64,000 nt of DNA from Candidatus Moraniibacteriota bacterium. GTDB lineage: Bacteria; Patescibacteriota; Minisyncoccia; Moranbacterales; DUUL01. The stretch covers positions 38,954 to 102,953 of the forward strand of contig DUUL01000039.1 of NCBI GenBank assembly GCA_012841575.1. Reading direction: 5' to 3'. Positions 5,065-30,126 of this stretch are shown here, in pieces. A model generated the notes under the pieces. It was not told the DNA's origin and did not search any database. It was given only the letters and a program-made list of their open reading frames with translations. Both the position numbers and the translations under genes were made by a program. Numbering within the stretch: the first letter of the stretch is position 1; every line of letters starts with the position of its first letter.

Positions 5065-5107
5065 TTTTTAATCCAATCTTAAGCCTTGATTTAAAGAATA
5101 ATTAAAG

Positions 5108-6298
5108 ATGAAACTTTTTTTAATTAAATTGGGCAAGGCCTTTACAGCTCTGAAAAGAGATGGTTTTTTTATTGGTGGCAAGAGAATTCTAGACTATCTT
5201 TTTCAATTTATTAGGACAATTTTGGGTTCTTTTCGATCGGGGGAGGCGTTGATTATTGCTAGTGGTGTTGGTGATAGCTCACATTATCGTGCTTTTAACG
5301 TGGCAGAGGAGTTAAATCTACAAGGAATAAAAACTGTAGTTACTATGCAAGACAACCCTTTGCTTTCAGTGTTGGTTAATAGGTTTCAAGTTTTCATTTT
5401 TCAACGCACAATTGTCACTCCAAAGGTCAAAAAAATGATTCATAAGATTAAGCAACAGAAAAAAGAAATTATTTTTGAAACAGACGACTTAGTTTTTGAC
5501 ACAAAGTTTATGCATGCAACAGATGGCTATAAAAATATGAGTTCCTTTGAAAAAATGCAATATACCAAGGGAGTGGGTGAGGAAATTTTAGCAGATCCCT
5601 ACGTAAAAACCTGCACCACTACCACAACTTACATCGCTAAAATTTTAAAAGCAAGAAAAAAGCAGGTTTTTATAGTGCCCAATAAGCTTAATCAAGCAGA
5701 GCTTAAAATTGCTAATGATTTATTAAAAAATCAGCAAAAGAGAAAAGACAATTTGGTAAAGTTGGGTTATTTTAGCGGAACAATGAGTCACAATCGAGAT
5801 TTTGCGACTATCACTGATGCTTTAATCAAATTATTCGAGCAATATCCACAGATGAGACTGGTTTTGGTGGGTCCTCTGGAGACAGAAAATAGACTTAATC
5901 AATTTAAGGATCGGATTGAAAGTTTACCTCTAGTTTCAAGAGAAAAGCACTATAATAATATTTTCCAAGTAGACATTAATTTAGCTCCATTAGAACTGGG
6001 AGATCCTTTTTGTGAAGCTAAGAGTGAGTTGAAATTTTTTGAAGCGGGAATTTTAGAAGTGCCAACGGTTGCGGTTAGCAACGAGACTTTTTCTGGTGCA
6101 ATTAAAGACGGAGTGGATGGATTTTTAGCAAAAAATACAAATGAATGGAGAGATAAGTTAGGACAGTTAATTGAAAACAAAGAACTGAGGAGGGAAATTG
6201 GACAAGCAGCTAGAAAGAAAGTTTTAGAAAAATACACTGTTAAAAATTCTAAAAACACTGTATACTATGACTACATTAACTCCTGTTTAAATAAATAA
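5108..6298 (+). CDS. GT-B fold glycosyltransferase (GT1/GT4-like C-terminal half), paralog of the internal domain of the 1515-aa protein
   Basis: The C-terminal EAGILEVPTVAVSNETFSGAIKDGVDGFLAKNTNEW is the GT-B donor-binding pattern. Clear collinear similarity to aa ~800-1185 of ORF 15713..20260 (VFIFQRT.VTP / VFIFYRTPITP, IIFETDDLVFD / VIFDIDDLVFD, LVLVGPLE / LTLVGPLT). Confidence 0.6.
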   Translation: MKLFLIKLGKAFTALKRDGFFIGGKRILDYLFQFIRTILGSFRSGEALIIASGVGDSSHYRAFNVAEELNLQGIKTVVTMQDNPLLSVLVNRFQVFIFQRTIVTPKVKKMIHKIKQQKKEIIFETDDLVFDTKFMHATDGYKNMSSFEKMQYTKGVGEEILADPYVKTCTTTTTYIAKILKARKKQVFIVPNKLNQAELKIANDLLKNQQKRKDNLVKLGYFSGTMSHNRDFATITDALIKLFEQYPQMRLVLVGPLETENRLNQFKDRIESLPLVSREKHYNNIFQVDINLAPLELGDPFCEAKSELKFFEAGILEVPTVAVSNETFSGAIKDGVDGFLAKNTNEWRDKLGQLIENKELRREIGQAARKKVLEKYTVKNSKNTVYYDYINSCLNK

Positions 6299-6318
6299 AG
6301 CAGGCAATTGTTTTTACT

Positions 6319-7101
6319 ATGAAAAAACAGCACGAAAACTACCAAGAGCTAATTTGGAGATTGGCAAAAACTGATTTTAAACTACGCTACCAAGGTTCAA
6401 TTCTGGGTTATTTTTGGGCTTTGCTTAAGCCAATGCTGACTTTTACGGTCTTATATTTTGTATTTTCTTCAATTTTCAATCCACGCAACTCTGATGGAGT
6501 GTCAACTTATTCGCTGGAATTATTAGTTGGTATTTTAATGTATAGCTTTTTTGCTGAAGGTACTGGCGCTGGCTTAAGCTCTTTGATGAGTAAAGCTCAG
6601 TTGGTAACAAAAATATATGTGCCTCGCTGGACAATTATTCTAGCTGCTACAATTAATTCTGCAATGATTTACTCAATGAATTTGCTGATAATCGTTGCAT
6701 TATTTGCGATTAAGGGCTTTCTACCAGAATGGCAGGCTGTAGCACTCTTCTTTTTGTTTTCCTTTTTCATTTATATTCTAATTGTATCTTTCAGTTTTAT
6801 TGCTGCGCCGCTTTTTGTTAAATTTCGTGATCTTTCAATGATCTGGGAAGTATTGTTGATGATTATTATGTATGCTTCGCCAATCATTTATCCTTTGGTT
6901 ACCTTGCCTGCAAAGTATCATCAGTTAATTCTATTAAACCCAGTAGCATTTATTGTGCACTTTACTAAAGAATCATTAATTCATGCACACTATGCTGATC
7001 CGTCACAATATCTAATCTTTATTATCATGCTAATTGCTTTCTTTGTGTCTAGTATTTTTATTTATCAAAAAATGATCAAGCGAGTTGCTGAAAATATGTA
7101 A
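6319..7101 (+). CDS. ABC-2 type polysaccharide/teichoic-acid exporter permease (Wzm/TagG-like)
   Basis: 260 aa with 6 predicted TM segments. N-terminal LRYQGSILGYFWALLKP is the ABC-2 signature region. It overlaps the downstream ATPase gene by 17 nt. Confidence 0.8.
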   Translation: MKKQHENYQELIWRLAKTDFKLRYQGSILGYFWALLKPMLTFTVLYFVFSSIFNPRNSDGVSTYSLELLVGILMYSFFAEGTGAGLSSLMSKAQLVTKIYVPRWTIILAATINSAMIYSMNLLIIVALFAIKGFLPEWQAVALFFLFSFFIYILIVSFSFIAAPLFVKFRDLSMIWEVLLMIIMYASPIIYPLVTLPAKYHQLILLNPVAFIVHFTKESLIHAHYADPSQYLIFIIMLIAFFVSSIFIYQKMIKRVAENM

Positions 7102-8437
7102 AAATATGAAAAAACCTATTGCCATTAAAGTAAATAATTTATCTAAGACCTTTGTAATTCCGCATGAGAAAATTACCTCTTTACGCTCAGCAGCAATTAC
7201 CGTTTTCAAGAAGAAGGGCTATGAGGAATTCGAGGCGTTGGATGATGTTTCTTTTGAAATAAAAAAAGGGGAATTTTTTGGAATCATTGGGCGTAATGGG
7301 AGTGGAAAATCAACCTTGCTGAAAATTTTAGCAGGAATCTACACTCCAGATCAGGGGAGTGTTAGAGTTGATGGTCTAATCTCACCATTTTTAGAGCTAG
7401 GGATTGGATTTAATCCAGAGCTTTCTGGGCGGGATAATATTTATCTTAATGCGACTGTCTTGGGAATGAGTGAGAAAGAAGTGGATGAGAAATTTGATGA
7501 GATTGTACACTTTTCAGAGCTGGGCAGATTTATTGATCAAAAATTGAAAAATTATTCTTCTGGAATGAGAGTGCGTTTAGCATTTTCTGTTTCAATTCAT
7601 GCCAACAGGGAAATTTTGCTGATGGATGAAGTTTTGGCGGTGGGAGATAATAACTTTCAATCAAAGTGTTTGGAAGAATTCAGAAAATATAAATCAATGG
7701 GCAGGACAGTGGTTTTAGTGACTCATGATATAAATGTAGTGCGTCGTTATTGCGACCGGGCAATGTTGTTGCGTCAGGGCAAGATTGTTTCTATTGGAGA
7801 TGTGAATAAGGTAACGGATCAGTATGTTTTTGATAATATGAGTGATGAAGAGAAGCGACTTTTGGAAGAAGAAAAATATCGTGTAAAAAAAGAAGCCGAA
7901 GAGAAGGCAAGAAGAGAGCGAGAGGATAAAATTAAACTAGCTAAAGCAAAGAAAGAACAACTTGCTTTAGAAAAAAAGAAGATTGAGGAAGAAAAAAAGG
8001 CTAAAGCAGAAAAAGAAAGGAATAGGTTTGTTGAAATTACAAAAGTAGAATTTTTAGGTAAAGAAGGGAGAGATAAGAAGGTTTTTGAGACAGGGGAAAA
8101 GGTTTCGATAAAAATCAAGTATAAAGTTATTAAGCCTTACAAGGAATTAAATTTTGGTGTCGGATTGCATGCTGTTTCGGGAGGTCAGATCTTTGGCTAT
8201 AATACACAAATGGATGATATTGAAGTTCAAGATAATAAAACAGAGTTAACACTAGCATTTGATTCTTTACCTCTTCTGGAGGGAGAATATTTTGTTAATA
8301 TTGCTTGCTGGGGTGCTGTTGAACAAAGTCACTATGACTTTAAGCCTAACTACGCAACCTTGAAGTTTTTTGCAAAGGGTAGAAAAGGAAAGTATAGAGG
8401 GTTTGTTGATATACCACATAAATGGCTAGATAGTTGA
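7085..8437 (+). CDS. ABC exporter ATP-binding protein (Wzt/TagH-like) with K/E-rich helical spacer and C-terminal beta-rich putative carbohydrate-binding domain
   Basis: Walker A GRNGSGKST, signature YSSGMRVRLAF, Walker B ILLMDEVLAVGD. Then an ~70-aa E/K/R-rich segment. Then a 135-aa domain resembling the Wzt C-terminal glycan-binding domain. Confidence 0.8.
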   Translation: MLKICKNMKKPIAIKVNNLSKTFVIPHEKITSLRSAAITVFKKKGYEEFEALDDVSFEIKKGEFFGIIGRNGSGKSTLLKILAGIYTPDQGSVRVDGLISPFLELGIGFNPELSGRDNIYLNATVLGMSEKEVDEKFDEIVHFSELGRFIDQKLKNYSSGMRVRLAFSVSIHANREILLMDEVLAVGDNNFQSKCLEEFRKYKSMGRTVVLVTHDINVVRRYCDRAMLLRQGKIVSIGDVNKVTDQYVFDNMSDEEKRLLEEEKYRVKKEAEEKARREREDKIKLAKAKKEQLALEKKKIEEEKKAKAEKERNRFVEITKVEFLGKEGRDKKVFETGEKVSIKIKYKVIKPYKELNFGVGLHAVSGGQIFGYNTQMDDIEVQDNKTELTLAFDSLPLLEGEYFVNIACWGAVEQSHYDFKPNYATLKFFAKGRKGKYRGFVDIPHKWLDS

Positions 8438-8453
8438 GTCAGAAAATTTTTTA

Positions 8454-18700: not shown

Positions 18701-20260
18701 TATATAAGTCGAACTGGAGAGGATGTTGTTTTAGGCTATTTTAGCGGTTCAAAAACGCATGATGATGATTTGAAGTTGATAGAAAATGTCTTGATTGAGA
18801 CTTTTGATAAATATCCAAAAGTAAAATTAACGTTGGTTGGACCTTTGACTTTAAGTGATAAGCTGAAGGCATATGAAGACAGAATCATTCGACATGATTT
18901 TGTTAGCTTCGAAAAATTGCCTGACTTAATTGCTCAAATTGATATTAATTTACTTCCATTAGCTCCGACAGAATTTAATCACGGAAAAAGTGAAATTAAA
19001 TACACTGAAGCGGCCTTAGTGAAACGACCAACTATTGCTAGTGTGACTAAGACAAACGCTTATGCTATCAAGGACGGTCAAACTGGATTTCTGGCTGAAA
19101 ATGAAAGTCAGTGGCAAGAGAAACTATTTCAGCTGATTGAAAATAAAAGTTTACGCATGAAATTAGCCAATCAAGCCTATCAAGATGTTATTAAACATTA
19201 CAACACTTTCAAAATTGGTCAGGGATTAGTTGATTTTATTAATGAAAATCGTCGAAAGAAGATAGTTTATGTTTCACCCAGTGTTAAAATTAGCGGTGGA
19301 GTGATGGTGGTTGGTCAGCATTTGAAAATGTTGCAGGCGGAAGGCTTTAATGTTTCCTTGGTTGCATGTGACAATGAGGAGAGACTTGATTGGATTGATG
19401 ATTTTTCTGTGCCAATTATTCCAATTAATTCATTTGAAAAAGCTGAGCTGAAGTTGTTAGATATTGCTGTGGCAACTCTTTGGTCAACCTTAATCTCAGT
19501 TCAGCGCTCAACTGCCCGAAAAAAATATTATTTTGTTCAAAATAAAGAGCATTTTTTCTATTCAAAAGAAGATAGTAATTTCGCACTTGCTAAAGCCACT
19601 TATTATGCAAGGAATGTTGAATTTATTACAATGTCACGGTGGTGTCAGGGGTGGCTGAAGGATGAATTTAATCAAGATGCTCGCTACATTCCCAACGGAA
19701 TTAGTGTCGACAATTTTCACAAGACCAAGCCACTTAAGCCAAAAGGTAGAAAAACTAGAATTTTAATCGAAGGCAATCCTGATGATAATTATAAGAATGT
19801 GGATGAGGCTTTTGAGATAGTTAAAAAATTAGACAGAAACAGTTTTGAGGTTTGGCTCATTAGCTATGGAGGAGAGCCTAAAAAATGGTACTCTTATGAT
19901 CAGTCTTTCAATAAGATTCCCTATAAAGAAATGAAAAAATATTACTCCAGTTGTGATATTCTATTGAAAACTTCACGCTTAGAGAGTTTTAGTTATCCAC
20001 CTTTAGAAATGATGGCGTGTGGCGGTGTTTGTGTGGTAGCAGAAAATGGAGGTAATGCTGAATATATTAAAGCTGAATTTAATGCTTTGACTTATCAGCT
20101 AGGGGATATTGAAACTGCTGTTCGGCAAATTGAAAGACTGAGAAGTGATGAGGAATTAAAAGAGAAGTTGAAAATTAATGGAATGAAAACAGTAAAAGAA
20201 AGAGCTTGGATTAATACACTAAAAGAATTAAAGCGCATTTATAACAATGGAGAGAATTAA
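15713..20260 (+). CDS. Giant (1515 aa) multi-domain glycosyltransferase: GT2-like + GT4 + coiled coil/FWK motif + GT-B (paralog of 5108..6298) + GT4
   Basis: aa 1-215 GT2-like (IIIPHHDRIDLL, FLNDDVE, QNGHEDVDLF). aa ~300-720 GT4 (EGFGRTLVEAM...GQNGFLYKPGD). aa 745-800 ERQLVDQISKNQIITNSKFWKMRNFYLKLKHWLTFVFLNPRKF. aa 800-1185 paralog of ORF 5108. aa 1195-1515 GT4 (ESFSYPPLEMMACGGVCV). Confidence 0.8.
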   Translation: MSKIKNFIADIIIPHHDRIDLLENCLSFIDQRKFNVIVESGGTFAQNCNRGAKKALTEKLIFLNDDVEIENSLLLEMCDKKSDIVGISQTIEHFPGVIFGLGMNFSREKLSISFSMNREELFFPSGFCFLIKKKCWEQLNGLDEVYQNGHEDVDLFMRAIEAKASFAFIDRPARHLHSQSAGRHDNHDRNTNLFWERWNELRIENLLRENKDRLVVDRGFFKWKNFERGLDESDFSQKFREFYLDKETAEIEFSDNIDLENELVQRNSFCVNFKDAKFTQLFKKLSLEKKFNEGVQVFLLMGDYGKFFKINPNLDQSYLDHYSNFSLWFAKKELLTASFISHSAGRYGAEKSLSNLLQEITQRGVLAQVIIPENGPIEEELLDLPIALEICETPWSTKQKDLVRVSILRKLVMEKAIESGRKIARFGADLVFSNTSVIDGGAWAAKMLNLPHIWRVLEYGRKEHSIDFIDTIENRIKFINQYSDKIIFSSEGLQNFYGKEIGFDKLAVVPEIFDLEEKGDESFTQLKTYFKNKKALKILVIGNLAEGKRQEEAVLAVSDLVKQGKEVELFLAGGHEDESYLTKIKELIAVNDLAKNVTLGGYCSEIRQLMQQADVVLSCSILEGFGRTLVEAMLQRKAVIGAASGGVKELIQEGQNGFLYKPGDYRELAEKLNYLIENSQEIALLGEKGYAFARERFQTKVTAEKAVNLLKEVKSQSKLTGPNQVTVDFLDDFSQETENSLAVLLEKERQLVDQISKNQIITNSKFWKMRNFYLKLKHWLTFVFLNPRKFFKKSIRLLKKAFNIFKEKGWRGFWKELKIFLAKNGILKPKAVITCKDFLIVSGCYLEMPQKYRCDFQKEQLEKHGLKGDFQFFTAINDAWLKYYDVFIFYRTPITPAVESFIKQAKKLNKLVIFDIDDLVFDENLVKGKHEFKAMNAEEKKIYLDGIRRHRKTMQLCDFGIASTETIAEYMRKIIPTVLINRNSVPDALLERSKKAYISRTGEDVVLGYFSGSKTHDDDLKLIENVLIETFDKYPKVKLTLVGPLTLSDKLKAYEDRIIRHDFVSFEKLPDLIAQIDINLLPLAPTEFNHGKSEIKYTEAALVKRPTIASVTKTNAYAIKDGQTGFLAENESQWQEKLFQLIENKSLRMKLANQAYQDVIKHYNTFKIGQGLVDFINENRRKKIVYVSPSVKISGGVMVVGQHLKMLQAEGFNVSLVACDNEERLDWIDDFSVPIIPINSFEKAELKLLDIAVATLWSTLISVQRSTARKKYYFVQNKEHFFYSKEDSNFALAKATYYARNVEFITMSRWCQGWLKDEFNQDARYIPNGISVDNFHKTKPLKPKGRKTRILIEGNPDDNYKNVDEAFEIVKKLDRNSFEVWLISYGGEPKKWYSYDQSFNKIPYKEMKKYYSSCDILLKTSRLESFSYPPLEMMACGGVCVVAENGGNAEYIKAEFNALTYQLGDIETAVRQIERLRSDEELKEKLKINGMKTVKERAWINTLKELKRIYNNGEN
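17995..18090 (+). repeat. Second copy of the ~90-nt FWK-motif block
   Basis: aattctaaattttggaaaatgcgtaatttttacctaaaattaaaacattggctgacttttgtttttctcaatccacgtaagttt, compared with 12700..12795. Confidence 0.65.
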
Positions 20261-21602
20261 ATTTTTCCTGAAAAAATTCAATAAACTTGAAAATATTTAT
20301 TTAGTTTTTGGCTTACTGGCAGGGTTGCTAATGGTTTTTGTAATGCCTCCCTTCGAGGTTCCGGATGAAAACTCACATTATTATAAATCCTGGGAGATCG
20401 CTGGTGGGAAAATTTTTTGTCAACCAGAGGAAGAAGAGAGTAATCTAATTCCTAAAACTGCTAGGGATTTACCTACTTACTATGAGTTAAAAAAAGAGAA
20501 GAAAGAGTTGGAAAATTTTAAATTTGCAAGAGTCAAAGAAGAAATTGCGACAAGCCCAGATTACACCTTAGTTGAGGGGACTCGTACTCAATTTTGTTCT
20601 GCTTCACCGCTTGGACACTTGCCACCAGCAGGAGTTTTGTTTATTAGTCGACAATTGGAGTTACCTTTTTCAGTCGCTTTTTATTTAGCAAGAATAGTCA
20701 ACTTATTAATTTCAGTTTTTATTATTTATTTTGCAATTAAAATCACGCCGCTTGCTAAAAAAATCTTTTTAATCATTGCTTTATTTCCGATTGTAATTCA
20801 AGAAACAGCCTCATTAAGTCACGATGCTTTTCATCTGTCCTTGAGTCTTTTGTTTATTGCCGTAATTTTGCATTTCTGTAGTCAACCAAAAGTATTTTTA
20901 ACCAAAAAAGACTACCTTAAAACACTATTCATTTCATTAGTCGCGCTTAATATTAAATATGGCTATTTCCCGTTGGCACTTTTGTTTCTTGCTCTTCCTG
21001 CTGGAAAATTTAAAAATAGGAAACAAGAGTGGCTCGCCAAATCAATATTTGTTACCATCAATGGCTTTTTCTTTTTATTTCTTTATAAATTATTTCAATT
21101 TCCCACTAAATGGCCGGAGGGAATCGATGTTTCTGCTCAAATGAAATTTGTTCTTTTGCATCCTTTAGAGTTTTTTTATACTGTAATTAATTCTCTAAAT
21201 TCAAGCTTGTATTTTTATTGGGAGAGTATGATTGGAGTTCCAGGTCCTTTTCGTGAACATTTTCCTGTTTTACTTTACGTCTTTATTTTTCTTGGACTTT
21301 TCTTTTTCGCTGTTAAGAGCAAAGAAAAGCTCATTCTCTCTAATTGGCAAAGGGTTATTTTTCTTTTCTCTGGGACAATAACTTTCTTCTTATTATTTTT
21401 TATTCTATACTTAATTTGGACACCAGTTGGAAAGGACTTGGTCAGAGGAATACAAGGTCGCTACCTAATCATCCCGTTTCTCGTAATTCTTCTTTCCTTT
21501 TATAACAAGCCAAACTTTTCAAAGAATAATTGGTGGCTGGTGGCATTTATTGGAATTTTTATGTTTTTCACCTTTAAGCATATTTTTTCCATTTATTACT
21601 AA
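20247..21602 (+). CDS. Polytopic membrane protein, probable GT-C-type glycosyltransferase partner (DUF2142/GtrC-like)
   Basis: 451 aa with ~11 hydrophobic segments and an N-terminal extracytoplasmic loop with acidic motif (PPFEVPDENSHYY). It overlaps the upstream GT by 14 nt and immediately precedes a GtrB-like gene. Confidence 0.5.
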   Translation: MERIKFFLKKFNKLENIYLVFGLLAGLLMVFVMPPFEVPDENSHYYKSWEIAGGKIFCQPEEEESNLIPKTARDLPTYYELKKEKKELENFKFARVKEEIATSPDYTLVEGTRTQFCSASPLGHLPPAGVLFISRQLELPFSVAFYLARIVNLLISVFIIYFAIKITPLAKKIFLIIALFPIVIQETASLSHDAFHLSLSLLFIAVILHFCSQPKVFLTKKDYLKTLFISLVALNIKYGYFPLALLFLALPAGKFKNRKQEWLAKSIFVTINGFFFLFLYKLFQFPTKWPEGIDVSAQMKFVLLHPLEFFYTVINSLNSSLYFYWESMIGVPGPFREHFPVLLYVFIFLGLFFFAVKSKEKLILSNWQRVIFLFSGTITFFLLFFILYLIWTPVGKDLVRGIQGRYLIIPFLVILLSFYNKPNFSKNNWWLVAFIGIFMFFTFKHIFSIYY

Positions 21603-21610
21603 ATGAAACT

Positions 21611-22522
21611 ATGAGTAAAATAGCAGTATTGATCCCTTGCTATAATGAAGAAAAAACCATCACTAAAGTGGTTAATGATTTTAAAAAGGAATTGCCTGAG
21701 GCAGAAATTTTTGTTTATGATAATAATTCCAAAGACAAGACTTATGAACTCGCCGAAAAAGCAGGCGCCAGAATGGGAAGAGAATTTAGGCAAGGCAAAG
21801 GATTCGTTGTTCAAAGAATGTTTCGTGAAATTGAGGCTGACTATTATGTTTTAGTTGATGGTGATGACACTTATCCAGCACAGGAAGTCAAGGATTTGCT
21901 TAATGTTGCTCAAAAATATGATGCGGATATGGTGGTTGGTGATCGACTCTCTAATGGTACTTATGCCAAAGAGAATAAGCGTGGTTTCCATAATTTTGGT
22001 AACTCTTTGGTTAAAAATTTAGTCAACTTATTTTTCAAGTCGAATTTAAAAGATATTATGAGTGGCTATCGAGTTTTTTCCCGAAATTTTGTTAAAAACT
22101 ATCCCATCTTAGTGGGTGGCTTTCAGTTAGAGACAGACATGACTATTTTTGCGTTGGACAAAAAGTTTCTTATCAAAGAGTTTGCGATTCAATACAGAGA
22201 TCGACCAGCAGGCAGTGTTTCTAAGTTAAATACATTTTCTGATGGATTGAGAGTGATTGTTATTATATTTAATCTTTTAAGGTATTATCGACCTTTGTTT
22301 TTCTTTTCAACAATTGCACTAGCTTTGTTTCTATTCAGTTTAGCCGTTGGATTGCCAGTGATTACAGAATATCTAGAAACTGATTATATCACTAAGATTC
22401 CTTCAGCGGTTTTAGCTTCTGGTGCCATGATTCTCTCGCTTATTTTCTTTGTTTGTGGTATTATCTTAGATGCAATTAAGCGCTTAGAAAGCGAAATAAT
22501 TCAATTAAAAATGAAACAATGA
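21611..22522 (+). CDS. Polyprenyl-phosphate glycosyltransferase (GtrB/DPM1/ArnC-like GT2 with two C-terminal TM helices)
   Basis: IAVLIPCYNEEKTI, YVLVDGDDTYP and MVVGDR motifs. Two TM helices at aa ~230-300. This is the typical GtrB architecture. Confidence 0.8.
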   Translation: MSKIAVLIPCYNEEKTITKVVNDFKKELPEAEIFVYDNNSKDKTYELAEKAGARMGREFRQGKGFVVQRMFREIEADYYVLVDGDDTYPAQEVKDLLNVAQKYDADMVVGDRLSNGTYAKENKRGFHNFGNSLVKNLVNLFFKSNLKDIMSGYRVFSRNFVKNYPILVGGFQLETDMTIFALDKKFLIKEFAIQYRDRPAGSVSKLNTFSDGLRVIVIIFNLLRYYRPLFFFSTIALALFLFSLAVGLPVITEYLETDYITKIPSAVLASGAMILSLIFFVCGIILDAIKRLESEIIQLKMKQ

Positions 22523-22962
22523 AAAAAATTATTCAAAAAACTCAAGGTTTGGCTTTTTTAATCCTAGCTACTTTTTTTCTAGTGGGATGTTCAGCCAAAG
22601 AAAGCAGTATTAAAATTGAAAACAATCAGGAAGATTTAGGTACATCTTCCAGCGAACTTTCAGTAACAGCCAATGATTTAGATGGTTTGCAAGAGCCTTC
22701 AGATGAAACACAACAAGATTTAGATAATTCGACTGACAACTCTGGAGATCTTGCGCCAAAACAAGATTTTGCTTCAATTAAAAACCAATTAGACAAAGAA
22801 GACTCAACCAAAAAAAACGAGGACACTGAAAAGTCAAAATCAAATACAAAAAACGAAATGAATGAAACAAATGATGGAGTTGATATTAAGGCTGAGGCAG
22901 ACAAGTGCATTAAGGATGGAGGAGTTTACAACACTTTTGCTCGACAGTGCTTTAAAAATTAA
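22519..22962 (+). CDS. Acidic lipoprotein
   Basis: Signal peptide with lipobox FLVGC|S. D/E/S/N-rich low-complexity body. C-terminal CIKDGGVYNTFARQCFKN. Confidence 0.6.
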   Translation: MKKIIQKTQGLAFLILATFFLVGCSAKESSIKIENNQEDLGTSSSELSVTANDLDGLQEPSDETQQDLDNSTDNSGDLAPKQDFASIKNQLDKEDSTKKNEDTEKSKSNTKNEMNETNDGVDIKAEADKCIKDGGVYNTFARQCFKN

Positions 22963-23012
22963 TTTTATTCTAGCTTATATTAAGAAATAAAAAAATAAAG
23001 GTAAAGATAAAA

Positions 23013-24494
23013 ATGAAATTTTTGACTAGGATTATTCTGGGAATATTTTTGCTTGGAGTTAGCGCCTCCAATGTTTTTGCTTTTTCTTCAGAAGACTTGT
23101 CAAAAGTGTATCGTTTTTATAGTCGTAATGATCAAGTTCACTTTTATACCAACTCTGAAGATGAGAAGAACTTTGTTGCGGCAACAAATCCTCCAGAACA
23201 ATGGTGGTGTGAGGGGGTGGCTTGGCAGGCATTTAACAATCAGAATAAAGGTCAGTTGCCAGTCCATCGTTTTTATAGTCAAAACTATCGTGCCCATTTT
23301 TACACTATCAGTGAGGAGGAAAAGCAATATATTATTAATACCTACAGTAAAGAGACTTGGCAGTATGAAGGGGTTGCTTACTATGCTTTTAAAGAAAGAC
23401 ATCCTGGAACTAGTCCAATCCATCGTTTTCACTCTCAAGTTTCCGGAAAACACTTTTTTACTATCTCAGAACCTGAAAAAGAAAATCTTATCAATGGGGC
23501 TTATCCCGAAGCGAGGTATAACTACGAAGGAATTGCTTGGTACACTCTTCCACCAGCAGGAGATGGGGATTGCAAAATAAAGACCACTTATCTAGGTGGT
23601 GAAATTACTGTTGGTCTTTTGGAGATGACAAGAAATCAACTTAAAGATGAAGGCTTTCGCTTAAAAGCGAATAGAGACTATTCCATTAAAGATAGATCTG
23701 GAAAGATTATTGCAGCTAGAGTTAGTGCTAACTCAGAAACAAGAGTTAAGTATGATAATGATGGAAGATTGAGGGTTTATAATTCAATTCCAGAAACAAT
23801 AGTAGACAGGGAAGTTCGTTTTGAAGAGTTTAGTGGTAATAACATTGATATAGTTTTTGAAATTAGACGCCCTGAAATGACTTACAATAAATATCGAGGG
23901 AAAATGAAACTTCGTTATAGCAAAACTTCAAAAAATATTTGGGCGATTGAAACTCTTCCTCTTGAGCAATACTTGTGGGGTTTTGGTGAAATTACTGGCA
24001 CGGGTGATGATGATTATGACAAAACCATGTTAACAGCGGCTAGAACTTATGCTTATTGGAAAATGCTCTATTCAACAAAGTACGCATCAGAAGGATTTAA
24101 GGTGGTGCCAACTCCAGCTAATCAAATTTACCGAGGTTATGTCTACGAAAAAAAGTATGGTGATATTCGTAAGGCGGCAGAAGAAACAAGAGGTCAGATT
24201 ATAAAACATAAAAGTGGTGACATTGCTTTGTCTCCTTATTCTTCTTGGACTGATGGGCGAACTAGGAGTTTTGAAGAGCGTTGGGGTTCAAAAGACTATC
24301 CTTGGTGCAAATCTGTCAAAGACCCTTATGGTAAACACCCGACTAAAAGCACTTCTCAATTAGAATCTGAAGGTAATCATATGGTTGGAATTAGTGCTCA
24401 CGGAGCACTCAATTTAGCAGGGAAGCACAACTGGAAATGGCAAGATATCATCAAATACTATCTTTCAAACGTCTCAATTGTGAGTATTTACTAA
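23013..24494 (+). CDS. Secreted SpoIID/LytB-domain protein with three N-terminal ~45-aa RFY repeats
   Basis: Signal peptide. Repeats VYRFYSRNDQVHFYT.., VHRFYSQNYRAHFYTISEEEKQYI..WQYEGVAYYAF, IHRFHSQVSGKHFFTISEPEKENL..YEGIAWY. The C-terminal ~300 aa has the SpoIID-like pattern (LEQYLWGFGEI..., LTAARTYAYWK, VVPTPANQIYRGY). Confidence 0.7.
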   Translation: MKFLTRIILGIFLLGVSASNVFAFSSEDLSKVYRFYSRNDQVHFYTNSEDEKNFVAATNPPEQWWCEGVAWQAFNNQNKGQLPVHRFYSQNYRAHFYTISEEEKQYIINTYSKETWQYEGVAYYAFKERHPGTSPIHRFHSQVSGKHFFTISEPEKENLINGAYPEARYNYEGIAWYTLPPAGDGDCKIKTTYLGGEITVGLLEMTRNQLKDEGFRLKANRDYSIKDRSGKIIAARVSANSETRVKYDNDGRLRVYNSIPETIVDREVRFEEFSGNNIDIVFEIRRPEMTYNKYRGKMKLRYSKTSKNIWAIETLPLEQYLWGFGEITGTGDDDYDKTMLTAARTYAYWKMLYSTKYASEGFKVVPTPANQIYRGYVYEKKYGDIRKAAEETRGQIIKHKSGDIALSPYSSWTDGRTRSFEERWGSKDYPWCKSVKDPYGKHPTKSTSQLESEGNHMVGISAHGALNLAGKHNWKWQDIIKYYLSNVSIVSIY

Positions 24495-24500
24495 AAGTCT

Positions 24501-26474
24501 ATGTCAATAAAAAAAACAAAACTAATTCTACCTCTTTTGACGCTGAGCATTTTTCTTATTTTTCCCTTTTTAAAAGTGAGCGCCAGTCCTTTTGGTGGAA
24601 TGATCAATGTGTTGATTGAATGTACTTGCAACAATAGCACTTTGATATTTGTTGGTGATCCGGTTGGCGGAGAATTCATTAAAGCGCCGGGAACAATAGC
24701 ACATGCTTGCGAGCCAATGCTACAGGGGGAGTGGATTTTGGGCGAGTATAGCGGAGAGGTGTCTTGTGAAGTAATGACTTCTATGGGTTGTATTGAAATT
24801 AAACGAGCGCCTAAAATTGATTTTTATGGCACTTCTCCAAATGACTGCATTGGCGATGGCTCTTCTGGTTCAGGTAGCTCAACTAATCTTGGAGGCTTGC
24901 TTGGCGGTAGTAATAATTTTTTCGGTCAAAATTCAATTGATCGTTTTTTCTCTAACTCAAATTCAAACCACTTTTTCACAATGTCTCAATTAGAGATATT
25001 TAGCATTCTACAAGGACAAATAGGTGGTGACTGGAACTTTGAAGGCTTTGCTTTTAATGGCTTTCAAGGAATGAATGGGAATAATTTTAACATCACTTCT
25101 AGCCAAATTCTTGGTAGCATTAAAGATGCAATTACTAATGAAATTAAAAATAAACTTAAGCAAACTGTTTTAAATGGTGTCAATAGCAATGTTTTTGATA
25201 GCATAATTGATCCCGCTATTAATCAGGTTTTTGGTAAAATTGAAGACATAATCAAGGTTGATATGAACTTGGGAGGCAACTTAAATACAGATGTTTTAGG
25301 TCAAGTCTCTGCCGTATTAAATGTTAATATTGGGGAAATAATTAATCAAGGGAGTATTGATCAATTAATTAACGATATCGGAGGTAAAATTCAAGATGAG
25401 GTATCAAAAAGAATTGCGAATGAAATATCAAGCCGTATTAAAGTCAATATCCCGAGCGAATTAGAGGCTATTTTGCTAGGAAAGGTTGAGCCAATAACAG
25501 CAGAGCAAATAATTGAAGACATTGTTAGGAAGGTTGAGGATAAGATTTTGGGAGAAATCAACAAGGCAGTGGATAATAGCGTCATTGGGGAGCTAGAGAG
25601 AATCCTAAATGATATGCAAGGTATTGCTATTACACCAGAGAGTGCACAGGAGATATTGGATGATTTGCTAGTTTCGATGGGAAATAATGTGTTGGATGGA
25701 ATTGTTGGTAATGTTCAAGGTCAATTTGCGGGCAATTTAATTCAAGTAGTTAGAGAAGAAGTTGTTGCAGAACTACCATCTTTGATAGAAGCCAAGCTTG
25801 ATGAAAAAATTAGTCAAGCAATCCTTGACAATGTAATGGATGGAGTATTGAAAGAATTATCCAATCAGCTGGAGAATGAGGTTAATCAAAGATTGAAGCC
25901 CGTTTTCCGTTTTTATTCTTCTGCGTTAAATGCACACTTTTACACAATCAGTGAGTTGGAAAAAATGTCAATTATTAAAAACTATTCAGCTGAAGATTGG
26001 TTCTATGAAGGAATAGCTTGGTATGCTTTCAATACTCAGAGCGGACAGCAATACATTGACATTGCAAATAAAATTAGAGATAAGATCTCTAATGGACTAG
26101 GCTCTCGAGTGGATGATGCTTTAAGAGGTGAGGTGAGTGCCGAAATTATTTCAGCTTTAGAAAAAAAGTTAACCGGCTTATTGCTAGACGAAGTGAGAGA
26201 GGAAGTTGATAGAGTTTTAGATGAGCACCTTTCCAATTCTACTGCCAGGGATCTAGCCAATGTTATTGTAAATCAAGCAGATAAAGAATTAAATGACTGG
26301 ATTAAAACTAATGTTAATGACAAATTAAAGCCCGTATTTCGGTTTTATTCATCTAAACACACCACTCATTTTTACACTATAAGTCCAGTTGAAAGAGATT
26401 TTATTATTAAAAACTATTCTGCCGAGGAATGGCTTTATGAAGGAATTGCTTGGTACACTTCAAATAAAAAATAA
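24501..26474 (+). CDS. Secreted protein: N-terminal 7-Cys domain, Gly/Ser linker, long amphipathic helical repeats, 2-3 RFY repeats
   Basis: Signal peptide. ECTCNNS...HACEP...SCEV...GCIE...NDC. GSSGSGSS linker. A degenerate repeat (RFFSNSNSNHFFTMSQLE..DWNFEGFAF). Two C-terminal copies of PVFRFYSS...HFYTIS...NYSAE.W.YEGIAWY, each preceded by a ~90-aa helical segment ending NxxLK. Confidence 0.6.
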   Translation: MSIKKTKLILPLLTLSIFLIFPFLKVSASPFGGMINVLIECTCNNSTLIFVGDPVGGEFIKAPGTIAHACEPMLQGEWILGEYSGEVSCEVMTSMGCIEIKRAPKIDFYGTSPNDCIGDGSSGSGSSTNLGGLLGGSNNFFGQNSIDRFFSNSNSNHFFTMSQLEIFSILQGQIGGDWNFEGFAFNGFQGMNGNNFNITSSQILGSIKDAITNEIKNKLKQTVLNGVNSNVFDSIIDPAINQVFGKIEDIIKVDMNLGGNLNTDVLGQVSAVLNVNIGEIINQGSIDQLINDIGGKIQDEVSKRIANEISSRIKVNIPSELEAILLGKVEPITAEQIIEDIVRKVEDKILGEINKAVDNSVIGELERILNDMQGIAITPESAQEILDDLLVSMGNNVLDGIVGNVQGQFAGNLIQVVREEVVAELPSLIEAKLDEKISQAILDNVMDGVLKELSNQLENEVNQRLKPVFRFYSSALNAHFYTISELEKMSIIKNYSAEDWFYEGIAWYAFNTQSGQQYIDIANKIRDKISNGLGSRVDDALRGEVSAEIISALEKKLTGLLLDEVREEVDRVLDEHLSNSTARDLANVIVNQADKELNDWIKTNVNDKLKPVFRFYSSKHTTHFYTISPVERDFIIKNYSAEEWLYEGIAWYTSNKK

Positions 26475-26492
26475 CCTTTAACTCACTTAAAA

Positions 26493-27005
26493 ATGGACAA
26501 GAAAATATTTTTCATTATTCCTTTTTTCATTGTATTAGCAGGATTACTTTTTTGGGCATATACCATTAAGAAAAGTCGTGAACTGCCAATTGACTCTGAG
26601 CAGCAGCAACAAATTTCCATTGAACAGCAAGAGAGACTGATTAATCCATCAGAGAGTGTTTATGACTCTACCACAGAAAACTCAGAAGAGGGTGAGGATA
26701 TTGTCAGAAAAACCAATTATAATATAAAAAAAGAAGACTGTGAAAATGAATGTGCTAACTTTAAGATGGAGGAGGCACTAAGACATTGTCAAGAAGTTTG
26801 TGGGTTAATTCCAGTGGCTAAGGTTGAAGGGGAGGACGCTTGCTCTGAAAAAGAAGGTGTTGCAAAAGATTATTGTTTAAGAGATAAGGCAGTAACTGCA
26901 AAAGACTTTAAGGGCTGCGATTTAATTGTCGATAAAAATATTCATCAGCAATGTAAAAATCGAGTCTTAGAAGATATTATGGATGAATCTTCAATGGAGT
27001 GGTAA
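26493..27005 (+). CDS. Small membrane-anchored Cys-rich protein
   Basis: N-terminal TM anchor (IFFIIPFFIVLAGLLFWAY). Acidic linker. Eight Cys in CENEC...C.EVC...C...C...C....QCKN. Confidence 0.5.
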   Translation: MDKKIFFIIPFFIVLAGLLFWAYTIKKSRELPIDSEQQQQISIEQQERLINPSESVYDSTTENSEEGEDIVRKTNYNIKKEDCENECANFKMEEALRHCQEVCGLIPVAKVEGEDACSEKEGVAKDYCLRDKAVTAKDFKGCDLIVDKNIHQQCKNRVLEDIMDESSMEW

Positions 27006-27024
27006 TTGATCTTCATTTAATGGA

Positions 27025-28854
27025 ATGAAAAAACTAAACAGATTTTTTATTAAACACTTCCTATTATTTGTCGGAGTTTTTGTTTTTGCTGGTGGTTGCA
27101 TGGCTAATGAAAAGGAGGAGGTTTCAGTTGCTCAAAATCAAAATTATCCCCCTAGAGAAATAGTCATTCAATTCAAAAAAGAACTCTTAAGCCTTGAAGG
27201 TGAAGACAATCTTCAAAAAGCACAAGAAAAAATTAGTCAATTTAATGGCAAATTGTTACACAAAAATGAGATCAGCAATGTTGCTATTTTTCAATTAGAT
27301 CAAGCTACTTTTGAAAAAAAGAGTATTAAGGAAGCGCAAAAATTTTTGGATGAAGAAATTGCTGAACTTAAAAAACTGCCATCAGTAAAATTTGCAGAGC
27401 CAAATTATCAAAGACGACCACTTTCCATTAAAACAAACGATCCTCTGAGAAATAAACTTTGGGGATTAGACAATAAAGGACAAGAAATACTCGGGTTTGC
27501 TGGCACTGTAGACGCAGATATTGATGCGCCTGAAGCCTGGGTTATTTCCAGTGGCCTAGTTGATATTCCTGTTGCAATAATTGACACTGGAATTAATTAT
27601 AATCATCCAGATCTTGTTAGTAATCTTTGGAACGGCTCTGATTGTTTAGACAAAAATGGAGTTTATTTGGGTGGCTGTCTCCACGGTTATGATTTTGAAA
27701 AGGACGATCCAGATCCAATGATGGAAGACAATGAACACGGAACCTTAGTTGCTGGCATCATTGGTGCAACTCCCAATAACAACATTGGGATTTTAGGTGT
27801 TGCTCCAAGAGCCAAGATTATGAGTCTAAAAAGTAGTTTGACTATTTATGAATTAGTAAATGCAATTGACTTTATAATCGCTAATGACGTAAAAATAATT
27901 AATGCTAGTTATGGCGGAGAAGAGTTTTCTCAAATCGAATATCAGGCTATTAAAAAATTTGGGGATCACGGAGGTATTTTAGTGGCTGGTGCTGGCAATA
28001 ATAACACTAACAATGATTCCTCTCACCACTATCCCTCTGACTATAATCTAAATAATATTATTTCCGTGGCAGCTACTAATCAATCTGATCAATTGTCCTC
28101 TTTTTCTAATTATGGAAAAATTTCGGTGGACGTAGCAGCCCCTGGGGAAAATATCTTAACCACTTCAGGGCAAAACAATTCTTTTGTCTATATTTCTGGC
28201 ACATCAATGGCAGCACCTTATGTTTCCGGTCTAACAGCGTTATTGTGGAGCTATAAGCCAAATTTAAGTGCTCAACAAGTGAGACAGCTTATTTTAGAGT
28301 CAGGAGATAGTCTACCAACCCTTGCCAATAAAACTTCGACAGGCAAGCGAATTAATGCTTATAAAACACTAGATAATCCTTTTGCTCAAACAAAGGAGTT
28401 ATATCGTTTTTATAGTCAAAATCATCAAGCACATTTTTACACGATTAGTAAAGCGGAGCGTGATCACATTATTGCTACTTATCCAAGAGAAGAATGGAAC
28501 TATGAGGGAATTGCCTGGAAAGGCTTTGAGAATAAAGTGTCTGGCTTAAAACTTTTGCCAGTTTATCGTTTTTATAGCCTAGCTTATCGCAAACATTTTT
28601 TCACAATTTCAGAAGCAGAGAAAAATAAAATCTTTAGTGGAGCTTATCCAGAAGCACAATGGAACTATGAAGGAGTTGCTTGGTATGCTTATCCAACAAT
28701 TAATACGGGACTTTCACCCATCTATCGTTTTTATAATCAAAATCATCAAGCACATTTTTACACCATTAGCAAAACAGAGCGTGACCACATTATTACTACT
28801 TATCCAAGAGAAGAATGGAATTATGAGGGCATTGCTTATTACTCACTGAAATAA
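27025..28854 (+). CDS. Secreted subtilisin-like serine protease (peptidase S8) with three C-terminal RFY repeats
   Basis: Signal peptide. Catalytic triad contexts AIIDTGI (Asp), HGTLVAGIIG (His), GTSMAAPYVSG (Ser). C-terminal repeats LYRFYSQNHQAHFYTISKAERDHI..WNYEGIAW, VYRFYSLAYRKHFFTISEAEKNKI..WNYEGVAWY, IYRFYNQNHQAHFYTISKTERDHI..WNYEGIAYY. Confidence 0.85.
   Translation: MKKLNRFFIKHFLLFVGVFVFAGGCMANEKEEVSVAQNQNYPPREIVIQFKKELLSLEGEDNLQKAQEKISQFNGKLLHKNEISNVAIFQLDQATFEKKSIKEAQKFLDEEIAELKKLPSVKFAEPNYQRRPLSIKTNDPLRNKLWGLDNKGQEILGFAGTVDADIDAPEAWVISSGLVDIPVAIIDTGINYNHPDLVSNLWNGSDCLDKNGVYLGGCLHGYDFEKDDPDPMMEDNEHGTLVAGIIGATPNNNIGILGVAPRAKIMSLKSSLTIYELVNAIDFIIANDVKIINASYGGEEFSQIEYQAIKKFGDHGGILVAGAGNNNTNNDSSHHYPSDYNLNNIISVAATNQSDQLSSFSNYGKISVDVAAPGENILTTSGQNNSFVYISGTSMAAPYVSGLTALLWSYKPNLSAQQVRQLILESGDSLPTLANKTSTGKRINAYKTLDNPFAQTKELYRFYSQNHQAHFYTISKAERDHIIATYPREEWNYEGIAWKGFENKVSGLKLLPVYRFYSLAYRKHFFTISEAEKNKIFSGAYPEAQWNYEGVAWYAYPTINTGLSPIYRFYNQNHQAHFYTISKTERDHIITTYPREEWNYEGIAYYSLK
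28402..28836 (+). repeat. Two ~115-nt direct repeats, ~90% identical, about 320 nt apart inside the protease gene
   Basis: tatcgtttttatagtcaaaatcatcaagcacatttttacacgattagtaaagcggagcgtgatcac... compared with tatcgtttttataatcaaaatcatcaagcacatttttacaccattagcaaaacagagcgtgaccac... Confidence 0.8.
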
Positions 28855-28872
28855 AAAACAACTTTTGAGTTG

Positions 28873-28945
28873 AGCCAGAAGTGGGAATCGAACCCACGAC
28901 CTACGCGTTACGAGTGCGTTGCTCTGCCAACTGAGCTATTCTGGC
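28873..28945 (-). tRNA. tRNA-Thr (anticodon CGU)
   Basis: Reverse complement is GCCAGAATAGCTCAGTTGGCAGAGCAACGCACTCGTAACGCGTAGGTCGTGGGTTCGATTCCCACTTCTGGCT. Anticodon loop CTCGTAA. T-arm GTGGG/CCCAC. CCA is not encoded. Confidence 0.8.
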
Positions 28946-29021: not shown

Positions 29022-30126
29022 ATGCTTTTAGCTGATATTAAAAGGGGAGTTAAAGAATTAAAAAATAAAATCGTTCAGTTGAACGACTGTCTTTGACTGG
29101 CAGGAGATTAGAAAAAAAATTACAGAAATAGAAAAAGAAACTACTAATCAAAATGATTGGTCTGATTATGCTAGATTAGGACAACTTGCAAAGGAAAAAG
29201 AAGATTTAAAAAATGAGTTAAAGGAGTGGGAGAGTTTAGTTCAAGAGCAAAAGGAGTTGAGTTTATTCATTAACTCCATCAATGAAAATGTGGACGACCT
29301 TCAATTAGCAGAGATTCAGTTGAAAGATTTGCTTGGAAGAATTAAACATTTTGAACAAAAGAAATTCTTTCAAGGTAAATATGACAAATCTAATGCAATT
29401 CTATCTTTGCAAGCAGGCGCCGGAGGAACAGATGCTCAAGACTGGGCAGAGATGCTTTTGCGTATGTACCTGCGTTATGCTGAAAGGAAAAATTGGTCAA
29501 TTAAAATTTTACACCAGTCACGCGGACTAGAAGCGGGTATCAAAAACACTACCATAGAAATTCAAGGTCAAAATACTTATGGATTTTTAAAAAGAGAGGG
29601 AGGGGTTCATCGCTTAGTTCGACTTTCTCCATTTAATGCAGATAGTCTTCGCCAAACTTCTTTTGCACTGGTGGAGGTGTTGCCTATACTAGAAAGACAA
29701 GTTGAATTAAAAATTAACCCTGCAGATTTAAGAATTGATACCTTTCGAGCCTCTGGTGCGGGAGGACAGCATGTTAATAAGACTGACAGTGCAGTGCGTA
29801 TTACTCACTTGCCAACTGGTCTAATGGTGGCTTGTCAAAATGAACGCTCTCAATTGCAAAACAAAGAAAAGGCAATGAAAATCTTAGAATCAAAATTGGT
29901 GCAGTTAATGGAACAAAAGCAAGTTAAAGAATTAGAAGACCTTAAGGGTGAGCAAAGAAAAATTGAGTGGGGAAGCCAAATTCGCTCTTACGTTTTACAC
30001 CCCTATAAAATGCTTAAGGACCACCGCACTGAATTTCAAACCTCAGCTGTGGAAAAAGTTTTAGAGGGAGAGTTAGATGAATTAATTGAAGACAATTTAA
30101 ATAAGATTGGGATGATCAAACATTGA
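29022..30126 (+). CDS. prfB: Peptide chain release factor 2 with programmed +1 ribosomal frameshift. Frame 0 is 29022..29096 and the +1 frame continues from 29095.
   Basis: Frame 0 reads MLLADIKRGVKELKNKIVQLNDCL then TGA. Shifting +1 at CTT-TGA-C gives DWQEIRKK...KELSLFINSINENVDDL, continuous with ORF 29257..30126. RF2-specific SPF (LVRLSPFNAD) and GGQ (GAGGQHVNKT) motifs are present. Confidence 0.85.
29090..29096 (+). promoter_or_regulatory. RF2 autoregulatory +1 frameshift site CTT TGA C
   Basis: Heptamer cttTGAc read directly, 24 codons after the ATG. There is no obvious AGGGGG-type internal Shine-Dalgarno 3 nt upstream. The upstream sequence is aacgactgt. Confidence 0.75.

Follow-up and report, generated by a model that had tools for sequence, protein, structure and literature searches.

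DUF5648 propellers on three secreted proteins beside a glycopolymer cluster of a Moraniibacteriota bacterium: a candidate wall-anchoring tag

We analysed a window of 64,000 nucleotides (nt) from a Candidatus Moraniibacteriota bacterium, a member of the candidate phyla radiation (CPR) (GenBank assembly GCA_012841575.1, contig DUUL01000039.1, positions 38,954 to 102,953 of the forward strand), and focused on five adjacent genes on its plus strand. They are located at 22519-22962, 23013-24494, 24501-26474, 26493-27005 and 27025-28854, and encode a lipoprotein of 147 amino acids (aa), a SpoIID/LytB protein of 493 aa, a Cys-containing protein of 657 aa, a membrane protein with eight Cys (the 8-Cys protein) of 170 aa and an S8 protease of 609 aa. 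The results showed that the SpoIID protein, the 657-aa protein and the S8 protease, which all carry secretion signals, share one module, a domain of the Pfam family PF18885 (DUF5648) built from three repeats of about 45 aa, and that the five genes form the 3' end of a glycopolymer biosynthesis cluster. With somewhat more confidence than doubt, we favour the explanation that DUF5648 is a shared glycan-binding tag which anchors secreted enzymes to the wall glycopolymer of the cell itself, the cluster being an envelope-remodelling and maintenance module. An initial annotation, made by a model from the sequence alone, had given the five plus-strand genes with exact coordinates, and its assignments of a lipoprotein, a SpoIID/LytB core, an S8 subtilisin core and a small Cys-rich membrane protein were all borne out.

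The shared repeat was identified by a Pfam search, a check which the initial annotation had suggested. PF18885 matched far above its cut-off of 25 bits, with 120.7 bits in the SpoIID protein (E 7e-35), 91.9 bits in the 657-aa protein (5e-26) and 134.2 bits in the S8 protease (4e-39). These matches confirmed that three secreted proteins with unrelated cores have the repeat in common, while the earlier count of eight to nine copies was corrected to exactly nine, three per protein. The count was obtained with a hidden Markov model (HMM) of the window's own units and a regular expression, in six frames over the 64 kb; all copies lie in the three open reading frames (ORFs) with per-copy E-values of 1e-21 to 1e-27, and the HMM scan found no tenth copy anywhere else in the window. 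Since three blades make up one pseudo-threefold (β-β-α-β)x3 domain, each of the three proteins carries one DUF5648 domain. The blades are contiguous in the SpoIID protein (23106-23540; aa 32-72, 84-123 and 136-176) and in the S8 protease (28399-28839; aa 459-498, 513-553 and 566-605), and are dispersed in the 657-aa protein. A chance or artefactual origin was ruled out by the E-values and by the 657-aa gene, of which an identical copy is present in separate JGI and Logan assemblies. Tandem Repeats Finder detected no DNA-level tandem array within the five-gene cluster, which points to an old origin of the DUF5648 repeats at the DNA level. In the S8 propeller, blades 1 and 3 share 88% identity, and in the 657-aa protein (25902-26453) blades 2 and 3 share 72%, while most other blade pairs lie at about 40-60%; this suggests recent intragenic duplication or conversion of blades.

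The repeat triplet was modelled with AlphaFold2 (AF2), using the C-terminus of the S8 protease (28372-28854) and an alignment of 62 sequences. The structure prediction, which the initial annotation had proposed as a check, gave a confident three-bladed (β-β-α-β)x3 fold, with a predicted local distance difference test (pLDDT) score of 97.4 and a predicted template modelling score (pTM) of 0.91. This topology matches the published descriptions of DUF5648 as '(β3α)3' (PMC11299179) and as a 'three-bladed β-α propeller' (PMC12853789). A sequence search of the PDB with the propeller returned chance ARF matches only, at E of about 1, Foldseek gave no PDB match at E<=1e-3, and the single match in a viral fold library (E 2e-7) is unnamed and uninformative. 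Among established wall-binding families, SLH, LysM, CW_binding_1/2, SH3b and GW gave no Pfam match at E<=0.1 in the five proteins.

Published work places DUF5648 on other secreted proteins. In a survey of GH70 enzymes it was described, for some of them, as a (β3α)3 auxiliary domain of three subdomains of about 45 residues, each β1-β2-α-β3, with conserved aromatic residues exposed in the inter-subdomain grooves (PMC11299179); aromatics so placed are typical of sugar binding. In a study of the BSAP proteins, the three-bladed β-α propeller is the 'group 1' C-terminal domain (CTD) of Bacteroidales pore-forming toxins (PMC12853789). For BSAP-1, whose CTD is of another fold, experiments identified this CTD as the part that binds the receptor, which is a protein; the O-antigen-targeting BSAP-2 and BSAP-3 fall into the DUF5648 group, from which the authors propose glycan recognition (PMC12853789). 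A 2026 preprint reports a GH25-DUF5648 prophage endolysin in Enterococcus cecorum. The statement of the initial annotation that the ligand of the repeat is unmeasured agrees with the literature, where glycan binding is a proposal by association (PMC12853789, PMC11299179). The Firmicutes/Actinobacteria repeat that it mentioned likewise exists and is Pfam DUF5648; the form YRLYNP..GEHLYT..E..L..GW..EG.AW was found in our searches (loci L008, L010 and L011; Erysipelotrichaceae, Olsenella and Thermophilibacter). The partner domains met in these searches were S8, M10, trypsin-like, lysyl endopeptidase, serralysin, metallophosphatase and β-helix/NosD, and many DUF5648 proteins were stand-alone domains of 160-270 aa or belonged to enzymes in genomes without the partners seen here. 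These architectures suggest that DUF5648 behaves as a portable binding module on secreted proteins. Its placement in the window, N-terminal on SpoIID, C-terminal on S8 and joined to a small Cys domain (cysN) in the 657-aa protein, supports the earlier idea of one binding-type module on unrelated secreted cores.

Pfam scans showed that the five genes adjoin a complete glycopolymer biosynthesis cluster of the ABC-transporter type (3967-22522, plus strand), which is co-directional with them, runs unbroken into them and extends about 18 kb upstream. It comprises a WecA/TagO-like glycosyltransferase (GT) of the GT4 family (3967-5064), Wzm (6319-7101), Wzt with a carbohydrate-binding Wzt_C domain (7085-8437), a GT1, methyltransferases, several GT2s, an epimerase, a 1515-aa multi-GT protein and a DUF2142 protein, all on the plus strand, and its last gene before the lipoprotein encodes a GtrB-like GT2 (21611-22522). 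This gene content suggests a surface glycopolymer exported by an ABC transporter, possibly methyl-capped, in a CPR bacterium. The lipoprotein gene begins (ATG at 22519) within the end of the GT2 gene, with an overlap of 4 nt at the stop codon, which makes a start of the transcription unit upstream of 22519 probable; consecutive ORFs of the five-gene set are 50, 6, 18 and 19 nt apart. The tight spacing (-4, 50, 6, 18 and 19 nt), together with a conserved order, supports linkage of the five genes, and from it we infer co-transcription. The five-gene operon of the initial annotation stood as regards the tight packing on the plus strand and did not stand as regards its start at 22519, as the set is the tail of a longer co-directional glycopolymer array. 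Downstream, the array is limited by a convergent tRNA-Thr(CGT) gene on the minus strand (28872-28945).

Co-conservation, on which the initial annotation had staked its grouping of the genes, was found in a sister species and in Pacebacteria-type contigs. In the sister species, represented by ten contigs from different samples, the five genes are fully collinear with the window, in the order glycosyltransferases, DUF2142, a 154-aa lipoprotein, a 493-aa SpoIID protein, a 273-aa protein, a 178-aa protein and the S8 protease, followed by prfB and enolase. The identities to the five sister proteins are, in gene order, 38%, 83%, 52%, 61% and 69%. Related loci were gathered with the SpoIID core; a scan with DUF5648 peptide patterns had given mostly unrelated DUF5648 proteins. 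The arrangement of DUF5648x3-SpoIID, transmembrane (TM)/8-Cys protein and S8-DUF5648x3 was present in contigs of two Pacebacteria metagenome-assembled genomes (L003/L005 and L004) and in the metagenome contigs L012, L021/L022 and L023. In every one of the approximately 17 distinct loci recovered, an 8-Cys homologue lies directly downstream of SpoIID, and this constant adjacency makes the SpoIID and 8-Cys proteins the tightest unit of the set. Among the recovered loci, S8-DUF5648 is confined to those with a DUF5648 domain on SpoIID as well, and about eight other loci have a segment of about 150 aa rich in Lys and Tyr (K/Y-rich) in place of the SpoIID propeller. Judged by these gene arrangements, DUF5648 is an exchangeable N-terminal module of SpoIID, and a protease with the tag goes together with a SpoIID that has it too. 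The K/Y-rich segment, in turn, seems to be a second type of surface-binding module for the SpoIID core. Such N-termini (L015-L019, L024 and L025) reach 62% K+Y in 60 aa, for example YKKYKLYKK...KYSKYKKY, and nothing else in these loci carries one.

In most related loci, the SpoIID pair has glycosyltransferase genes as neighbours (L003, L009, L013, L014, L017, L019, L021, L024 and L025). Within Pacebacteria loci, propellers from different proteins share 55-57% identity, compared with 47-50% when one protein is followed across lineages, which is a modest hint of a lineage-specific common ligand and would fit a ligand on the own cell or on a host. Two further observations concern the reach of the repeat. 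In L003, the trio of SpoIID, partner and S8 adjoins a gene (4712-6769, minus strand) for a β-helix/NosD protein of 685 aa that carries DUF5648x3 at its C-terminus, a fourth type of 'warhead' on the DUF5648 tag; a GT2/GT1 gene comes next. The SpoIID homologues of L013 (7452-8894) and L014 (3259-4743) have a divergent repeat, YKGIAFYAY...LPVYQFWS...DYYYTISE..K.KL, in which Asp-Tyr replaces the usual conserved His-Phe and which is still DUF5648-like when compared with the window propeller.

The SpoIID protein (23013-24494) has a Sec-type signal peptide, with cleavage between VFA and FS, and is a predicted lytic transglycosylase. Its core passes PF08486 (34.3 bits, cut-off 23) and matches the PDB entries 4rwr (E 1e-11) and 5i1t (E 2e-10), aligning also to 5txu. 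The Glu of its GEITG motif corresponds to the SEMNAS Glu of 4rwr in the alignment and is invariant in a three-sequence alignment; this conserved position, in the helix that follows the LPLE.Y motif, is taken as catalytic. The protein remains below the NCBIfam cut-offs of TIGR02669 (69.6 vs 83.3 bits) and of the sporulation family TIGR02870 (spore_II_D; 44.7 vs 234.75 bits). Going by these scores, the core belongs to a divergent clade distinct from the sporulation equivalog, and a sporulation gene was rejected on the sub-threshold equivalog scores and the CPR context. A literature search for SpoIID in CPR/Patescibacteria found nothing. Compared with the sister species, the protein is 83% identical overall, the same figure as for enolase, with 87% in the DUF5648 part and 94% in the catalytic part. 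Conservation equal to that of enolase indicates strong purifying selection.

The partner encoded at 26493-27005 consists of a lone N-terminal hydrophobic helix, predicted to span the membrane and without an obvious cleavage site, an acidic linker and a C-terminal 8-Cys domain. In an alignment of the family, a twin CX3C motif (EDCxNEC...YCxxVCG) is accompanied by further invariant Cys; two members, L020 and L026, are without the middle Cys pair. A profile of 15 partner sequences found no credible relative in Pfam or the PDB, a word-indexed search with the 8-Cys protein returned itself and one relative only, and a metagenome scan with patterns from it gave no confirmed match.

The S8 protease (27025-28854) is composed of a prodomain (PF22148, 21.9 bits; fervidolysin-like), a subtilase domain (PF00082, 191.8 bits) and the propeller. 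The triad motifs DTG, HGT and GTS are present at residues 187, 238 and 392. Its signal peptide ends with FAGG before a Cys, a possible lipobox. The best NCBIfam similarity is to the mycosin type and lies far under the cut-off (164.5 vs 278.75 bits). Orthologues were found in L003, L004, L012, L021, L023 and the sister contigs L030/L032. The sister protein is called with 502 aa in L030 (11401-12909) and 594 aa in L032 (11401-13182), which may be a strain-level truncation of the propeller or an assembly difference.

The 657-aa protein (24501-26474) combines a Cys-containing N-terminal domain with an interrupted DUF5648 propeller, PF18885 matching it in three stretches. Behind a Sec-type signal peptide (cleaved between VSA and SP) follow the cysN domain (about aa 28-117; 24582-24851), a family defined with HMMER that has no Pfam model; blade 1 (aa 146-185; 24936-25055), the most degenerate copy; insertion 1 (about aa 190-464; 25068-25892); blade 2 (aa 468-507; 25902-26021); insertion 2 (about aa 511-608; 26031-26324); and blade 3 (aa 612-651; 26334-26453), located by the HMM copy and in the AF2 model. 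There are only six Cys, all within the first 116 residues. No full-length homologue was found among 5.8 billion proteins. The orthologues of the sister species (P0015, 273 aa) and of L012 (296 aa) consist of the cysN domain followed by three contiguous blades, and the 657-aa protein aligns end to end with P0015 (68% identity in the cysN domain) save for the two insertions, which fall exactly in the inter-blade linkers. Insertion 1 is all-helical and absent from the orthologues, with only a sub-threshold DUF445 match in Pfam, and insertion 2 is helical as well, as seen from the P0015 alignment and AF2.

For the AF2 model of this protein, the sequence sets were screened for the correct blade register, since default MAFFT had misplaced blade 2 of the homologues on insertion 2. 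The blades were modelled with pLDDT 89-98 (89-96 for blade 1 and 93-98 for blade 2), the insertions appeared as long helices of pLDDT 55-83, one of them running for about 86 residues straight into blade 2 (insertion 1 helices at 200-464, pLDDT about 55-83), and the N-terminal domain was poorly modelled. Taken together, the contiguous blades of the orthologues and the high local confidence suggest that the three dispersed blades would pack into one propeller. An exhaustive HMMER search at E<=1e-3 gave 118 representatives of the cysN family at 50% clustering. Most of them are secreted proteins of 110-130 aa that consist of this domain alone, with four conserved Cys and the motif PFGG..CxC..GPP.GG.F..PGT..G.W.LG..C..C..GTS; in a few, it is joined to DUF5648, to dockerin or to a long low-complexity tail. 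The initial annotation had described this gene product as a Cys-rich helical protein and putative adhesin. That description was not supported: no evidence speaks for an adhesin, and the protein is better described as a small secreted Cys-containing domain joined to a DUF5648 propeller that has acquired two helical insertions.

In the explanation we favour, the SpoIID enzyme, the S8 protease and the Cys-domain protein would, after Sec export, be held on a surface glycopolymer by the non-catalytic DUF5648 tag, whose most likely target is the cell's own secondary wall polymer made by the WecA/Wzm/Wzt-type cluster. The functional core would be the SpoIID enzyme with the 8-Cys membrane protein, which probably positions or regulates SpoIID at the membrane. 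The S8 protease with its wall tag and the Cys-domain protein would be lineage-specific additions using the same tag, and the whole set would serve to remodel and maintain the envelope. Several points weigh against this explanation. The published link of DUF5648 to glycans is by association only. SpoIID loci of the K/Y type, which have no DUF5648, also adjoin GT genes, so that the adjacency is suggestive and not specific. BSAP toxins and a phage endolysin use DUF5648 against other cells, and a host-directed role in an epibiont is thus conceivable. Between the window and the sister species, the S8 protein is 69% identical overall, with a lower figure for the propeller (65%) than for the catalytic domain (76%). 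As regards co-transcription, a promoter and terminator consensus scan gave counts near the shuffled expectation and was not used.

The host-directed possibility was the one put forward by the initial annotation, as a toolkit for host attack or attachment. The propellers would bind a glycan, for example O-antigen or a wall polysaccharide, on the surface of a host or prey cell and deliver the SpoIID enzyme and the S8 protease for attachment, wall breaching or nutrient release, with the 8-Cys protein in self-protection or docking. Moranbacteria and other CPR bacteria are regarded as epibionts, which suits this possibility, as does the position of DUF5648 at the site of target-cell recognition in BSAP toxins and in the GH25 prophage endolysin. 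Furthermore, the only PDB fold match of DUF5648 lies in a pore-forming toxin, differently armed DUF5648 proteins (SpoIID, S8 and β-helix) are clustered, and the lipoprotein (38%) and the S8 propeller (65%) evolve faster than the flanking genes. However, the pair of SpoIID and TM/Cys protein is universal in the related loci, often with a K/Y-rich segment instead of DUF5648, and looks housekeeping-like. The enolase-like conservation of SpoIID and the 87% identity of its propeller do not show the diversification expected of a host-recognition interface, and the genes lie inside the cell's own glycan-synthesis locus. Besides, the sporulation SpoIID of Bacillus needs glycan strands already stripped of peptides, and the cluster has no amidase to supply them. 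Because of the own glycan locus, the universal SpoIID pair and the conserved SpoIID protein with its propeller, self-anchoring is favoured over host attack, which is not the better-supported reading and which we regard as unlikely.

If the ligand were instead peptidoglycan itself, DUF5648 would be a generic wall module of the LysM or SH3b kind and the adjacency to the glycan cluster would be incidental. Its fusion to peptidoglycan-active enzymes (SpoIID here, the GH25 endolysin in Enterococcus cecorum) and its wide taxonomic spread, which suits a universal ligand, agree with this. Yet DUF5648 is also found on GH70 α-glucan enzymes and on toxins of Bacteroidales, which are Gram-negative with unexposed peptidoglycan and whose group members target O-antigen, and the propellers within a lineage are more alike than those of the same protein across lineages; we hold such a ligand to be quite improbable. 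Very improbable in our judgement is a protein-protein assembly module with no carbohydrate ligand, which would join the carriers in one complex or dock them on an S-layer or pilus. All DUF5648 carriers here are neighbours, and BSAP-1, with its different CTD fold, has a protein receptor; against this, many DUF5648 proteins are stand-alone or belong to genomes without these partners, and the conserved groove aromatics of the GH70 analysis are typical of sugar binding (PMC11299179).

Compared with the known DUF5648 proteins of the GH70 and BSAP groups, the window proteins have the same HMM family, the same fold of three β-β-α-β units and the same use as a terminal add-on to secreted proteins. They differ in the carriers, which are SpoIID, S8 and a Cys-domain protein encoded in a single gene cluster of a CPR bacterium, and in that one of these three copies is split by helical insertions of about 275 aa and about 95 aa. 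The five proteins are not BSAPs, as Pfam found no MACPF domain in them and only the CTD-type domain is in common; there is no GH70 either. The design logic of a shared binding module resembles that of the monoderm wall anchors, in which one repeat-built module, often in three copies, is carried by unrelated enzymes, and the genes for the polymer are often nearby (SLH with pyruvylated secondary cell wall polymer, CWB2 with PS-II of Clostridioides difficile, choline-binding repeats with teichoic acid, GW, LysM and SH3b). This is a comparison of mechanism and not of membership, since these anchors have no sequence relationship to DUF5648. With the SpoIID-SpoIIM-SpoIIP system the locus shares a homologous SpoIID catalytic domain and an enzyme encoded beside a membrane protein, but the partner here is an unrelated single-pass 8-Cys protein, and Pfam and NCBIfam gave no SpoIIP or SpoIIM match among the five proteins. 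Unlike SpoIID of Bacillus and Clostridioides, which has a membrane anchor at the N-terminus, the protein has a cleavable signal peptide followed by DUF5648 (K/Y-rich in relatives). WprA of Bacillus subtilis and the lactococcal PrtP are S8 proteases that have a prodomain and a module for retention at the wall; such proteases are encoded together with wall hydrolases or act on them. The S8 protease of the window resembles them in its layout and triad motifs and differs in its presumed retention module, DUF5648, with no LPXTG motif.

DUF5648 is already catalogued, its likely role is already proposed in print, and the design of one module on many enzymes is classical, so the finding overturns nothing in current understanding. 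The literature searched contained no account of a CPR pair of SpoIID and 8-Cys protein with swappable tags, of the cysN family or of helical insertions that interrupt blades. A broader proposal combines three parts: DUF5648 as an anchor to the own wall that reads the adjacent polymer, the SpoIID and 8-Cys pair as an undescribed CPR-wide peptidoglycan-cleaving unit with a swappable tag (DUF5648x3 or K/Y-rich), and the 657-aa protein as a natural split propeller. We offer this combination only tentatively and consider it rather doubtful as a whole. The cluster is a convenient place to test the DUF5648 ligand, as it has three differently armed carriers beside a defined glycopolymer pathway. It could show how wall-less-looking, ultrasmall CPR cells retain secreted enzymes at their surface, and the SpoIID and 8-Cys pair may be a core wall-cleaving unit of minimal CPR genomes.

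The lipoprotein (22519-22962) has a signal peptide and a lipobox, cleaved between LVG and C, and belongs to no Pfam family. It is 38% identical to its 154-aa sister orthologue overall and 31% in the acidic and polar middle. The last 22 aa (22894-22959) form a two-Cys loop (EADKCIKDGGVYNTFARQCFKN) that is 82% conserved in the sister species, and this loop may be the only functional part. Directly upstream, the GtrB-like GT2 gene (21611-22522) has no counterpart in the otherwise collinear sister locus, where the genes for DUF2142 and the lipoprotein are 165 nt apart; by this comparison, the GT2 gene was gained or lost in one lineage at the point where the glycan genes meet the five genes. Undecaprenyl-diphosphate synthase, RmlD and FtsW/RodA are encoded elsewhere in the window. 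Beyond the tRNA gene, prfB (release factor 2, RF2; 29022-30126, plus strand) contains a programmed +1 frameshift site, CTT TGA C, at 29091-29097. ORF callers give only its downstream part (289 or 278 aa), and joining the two frames yields an intact RF2 of 367 aa.

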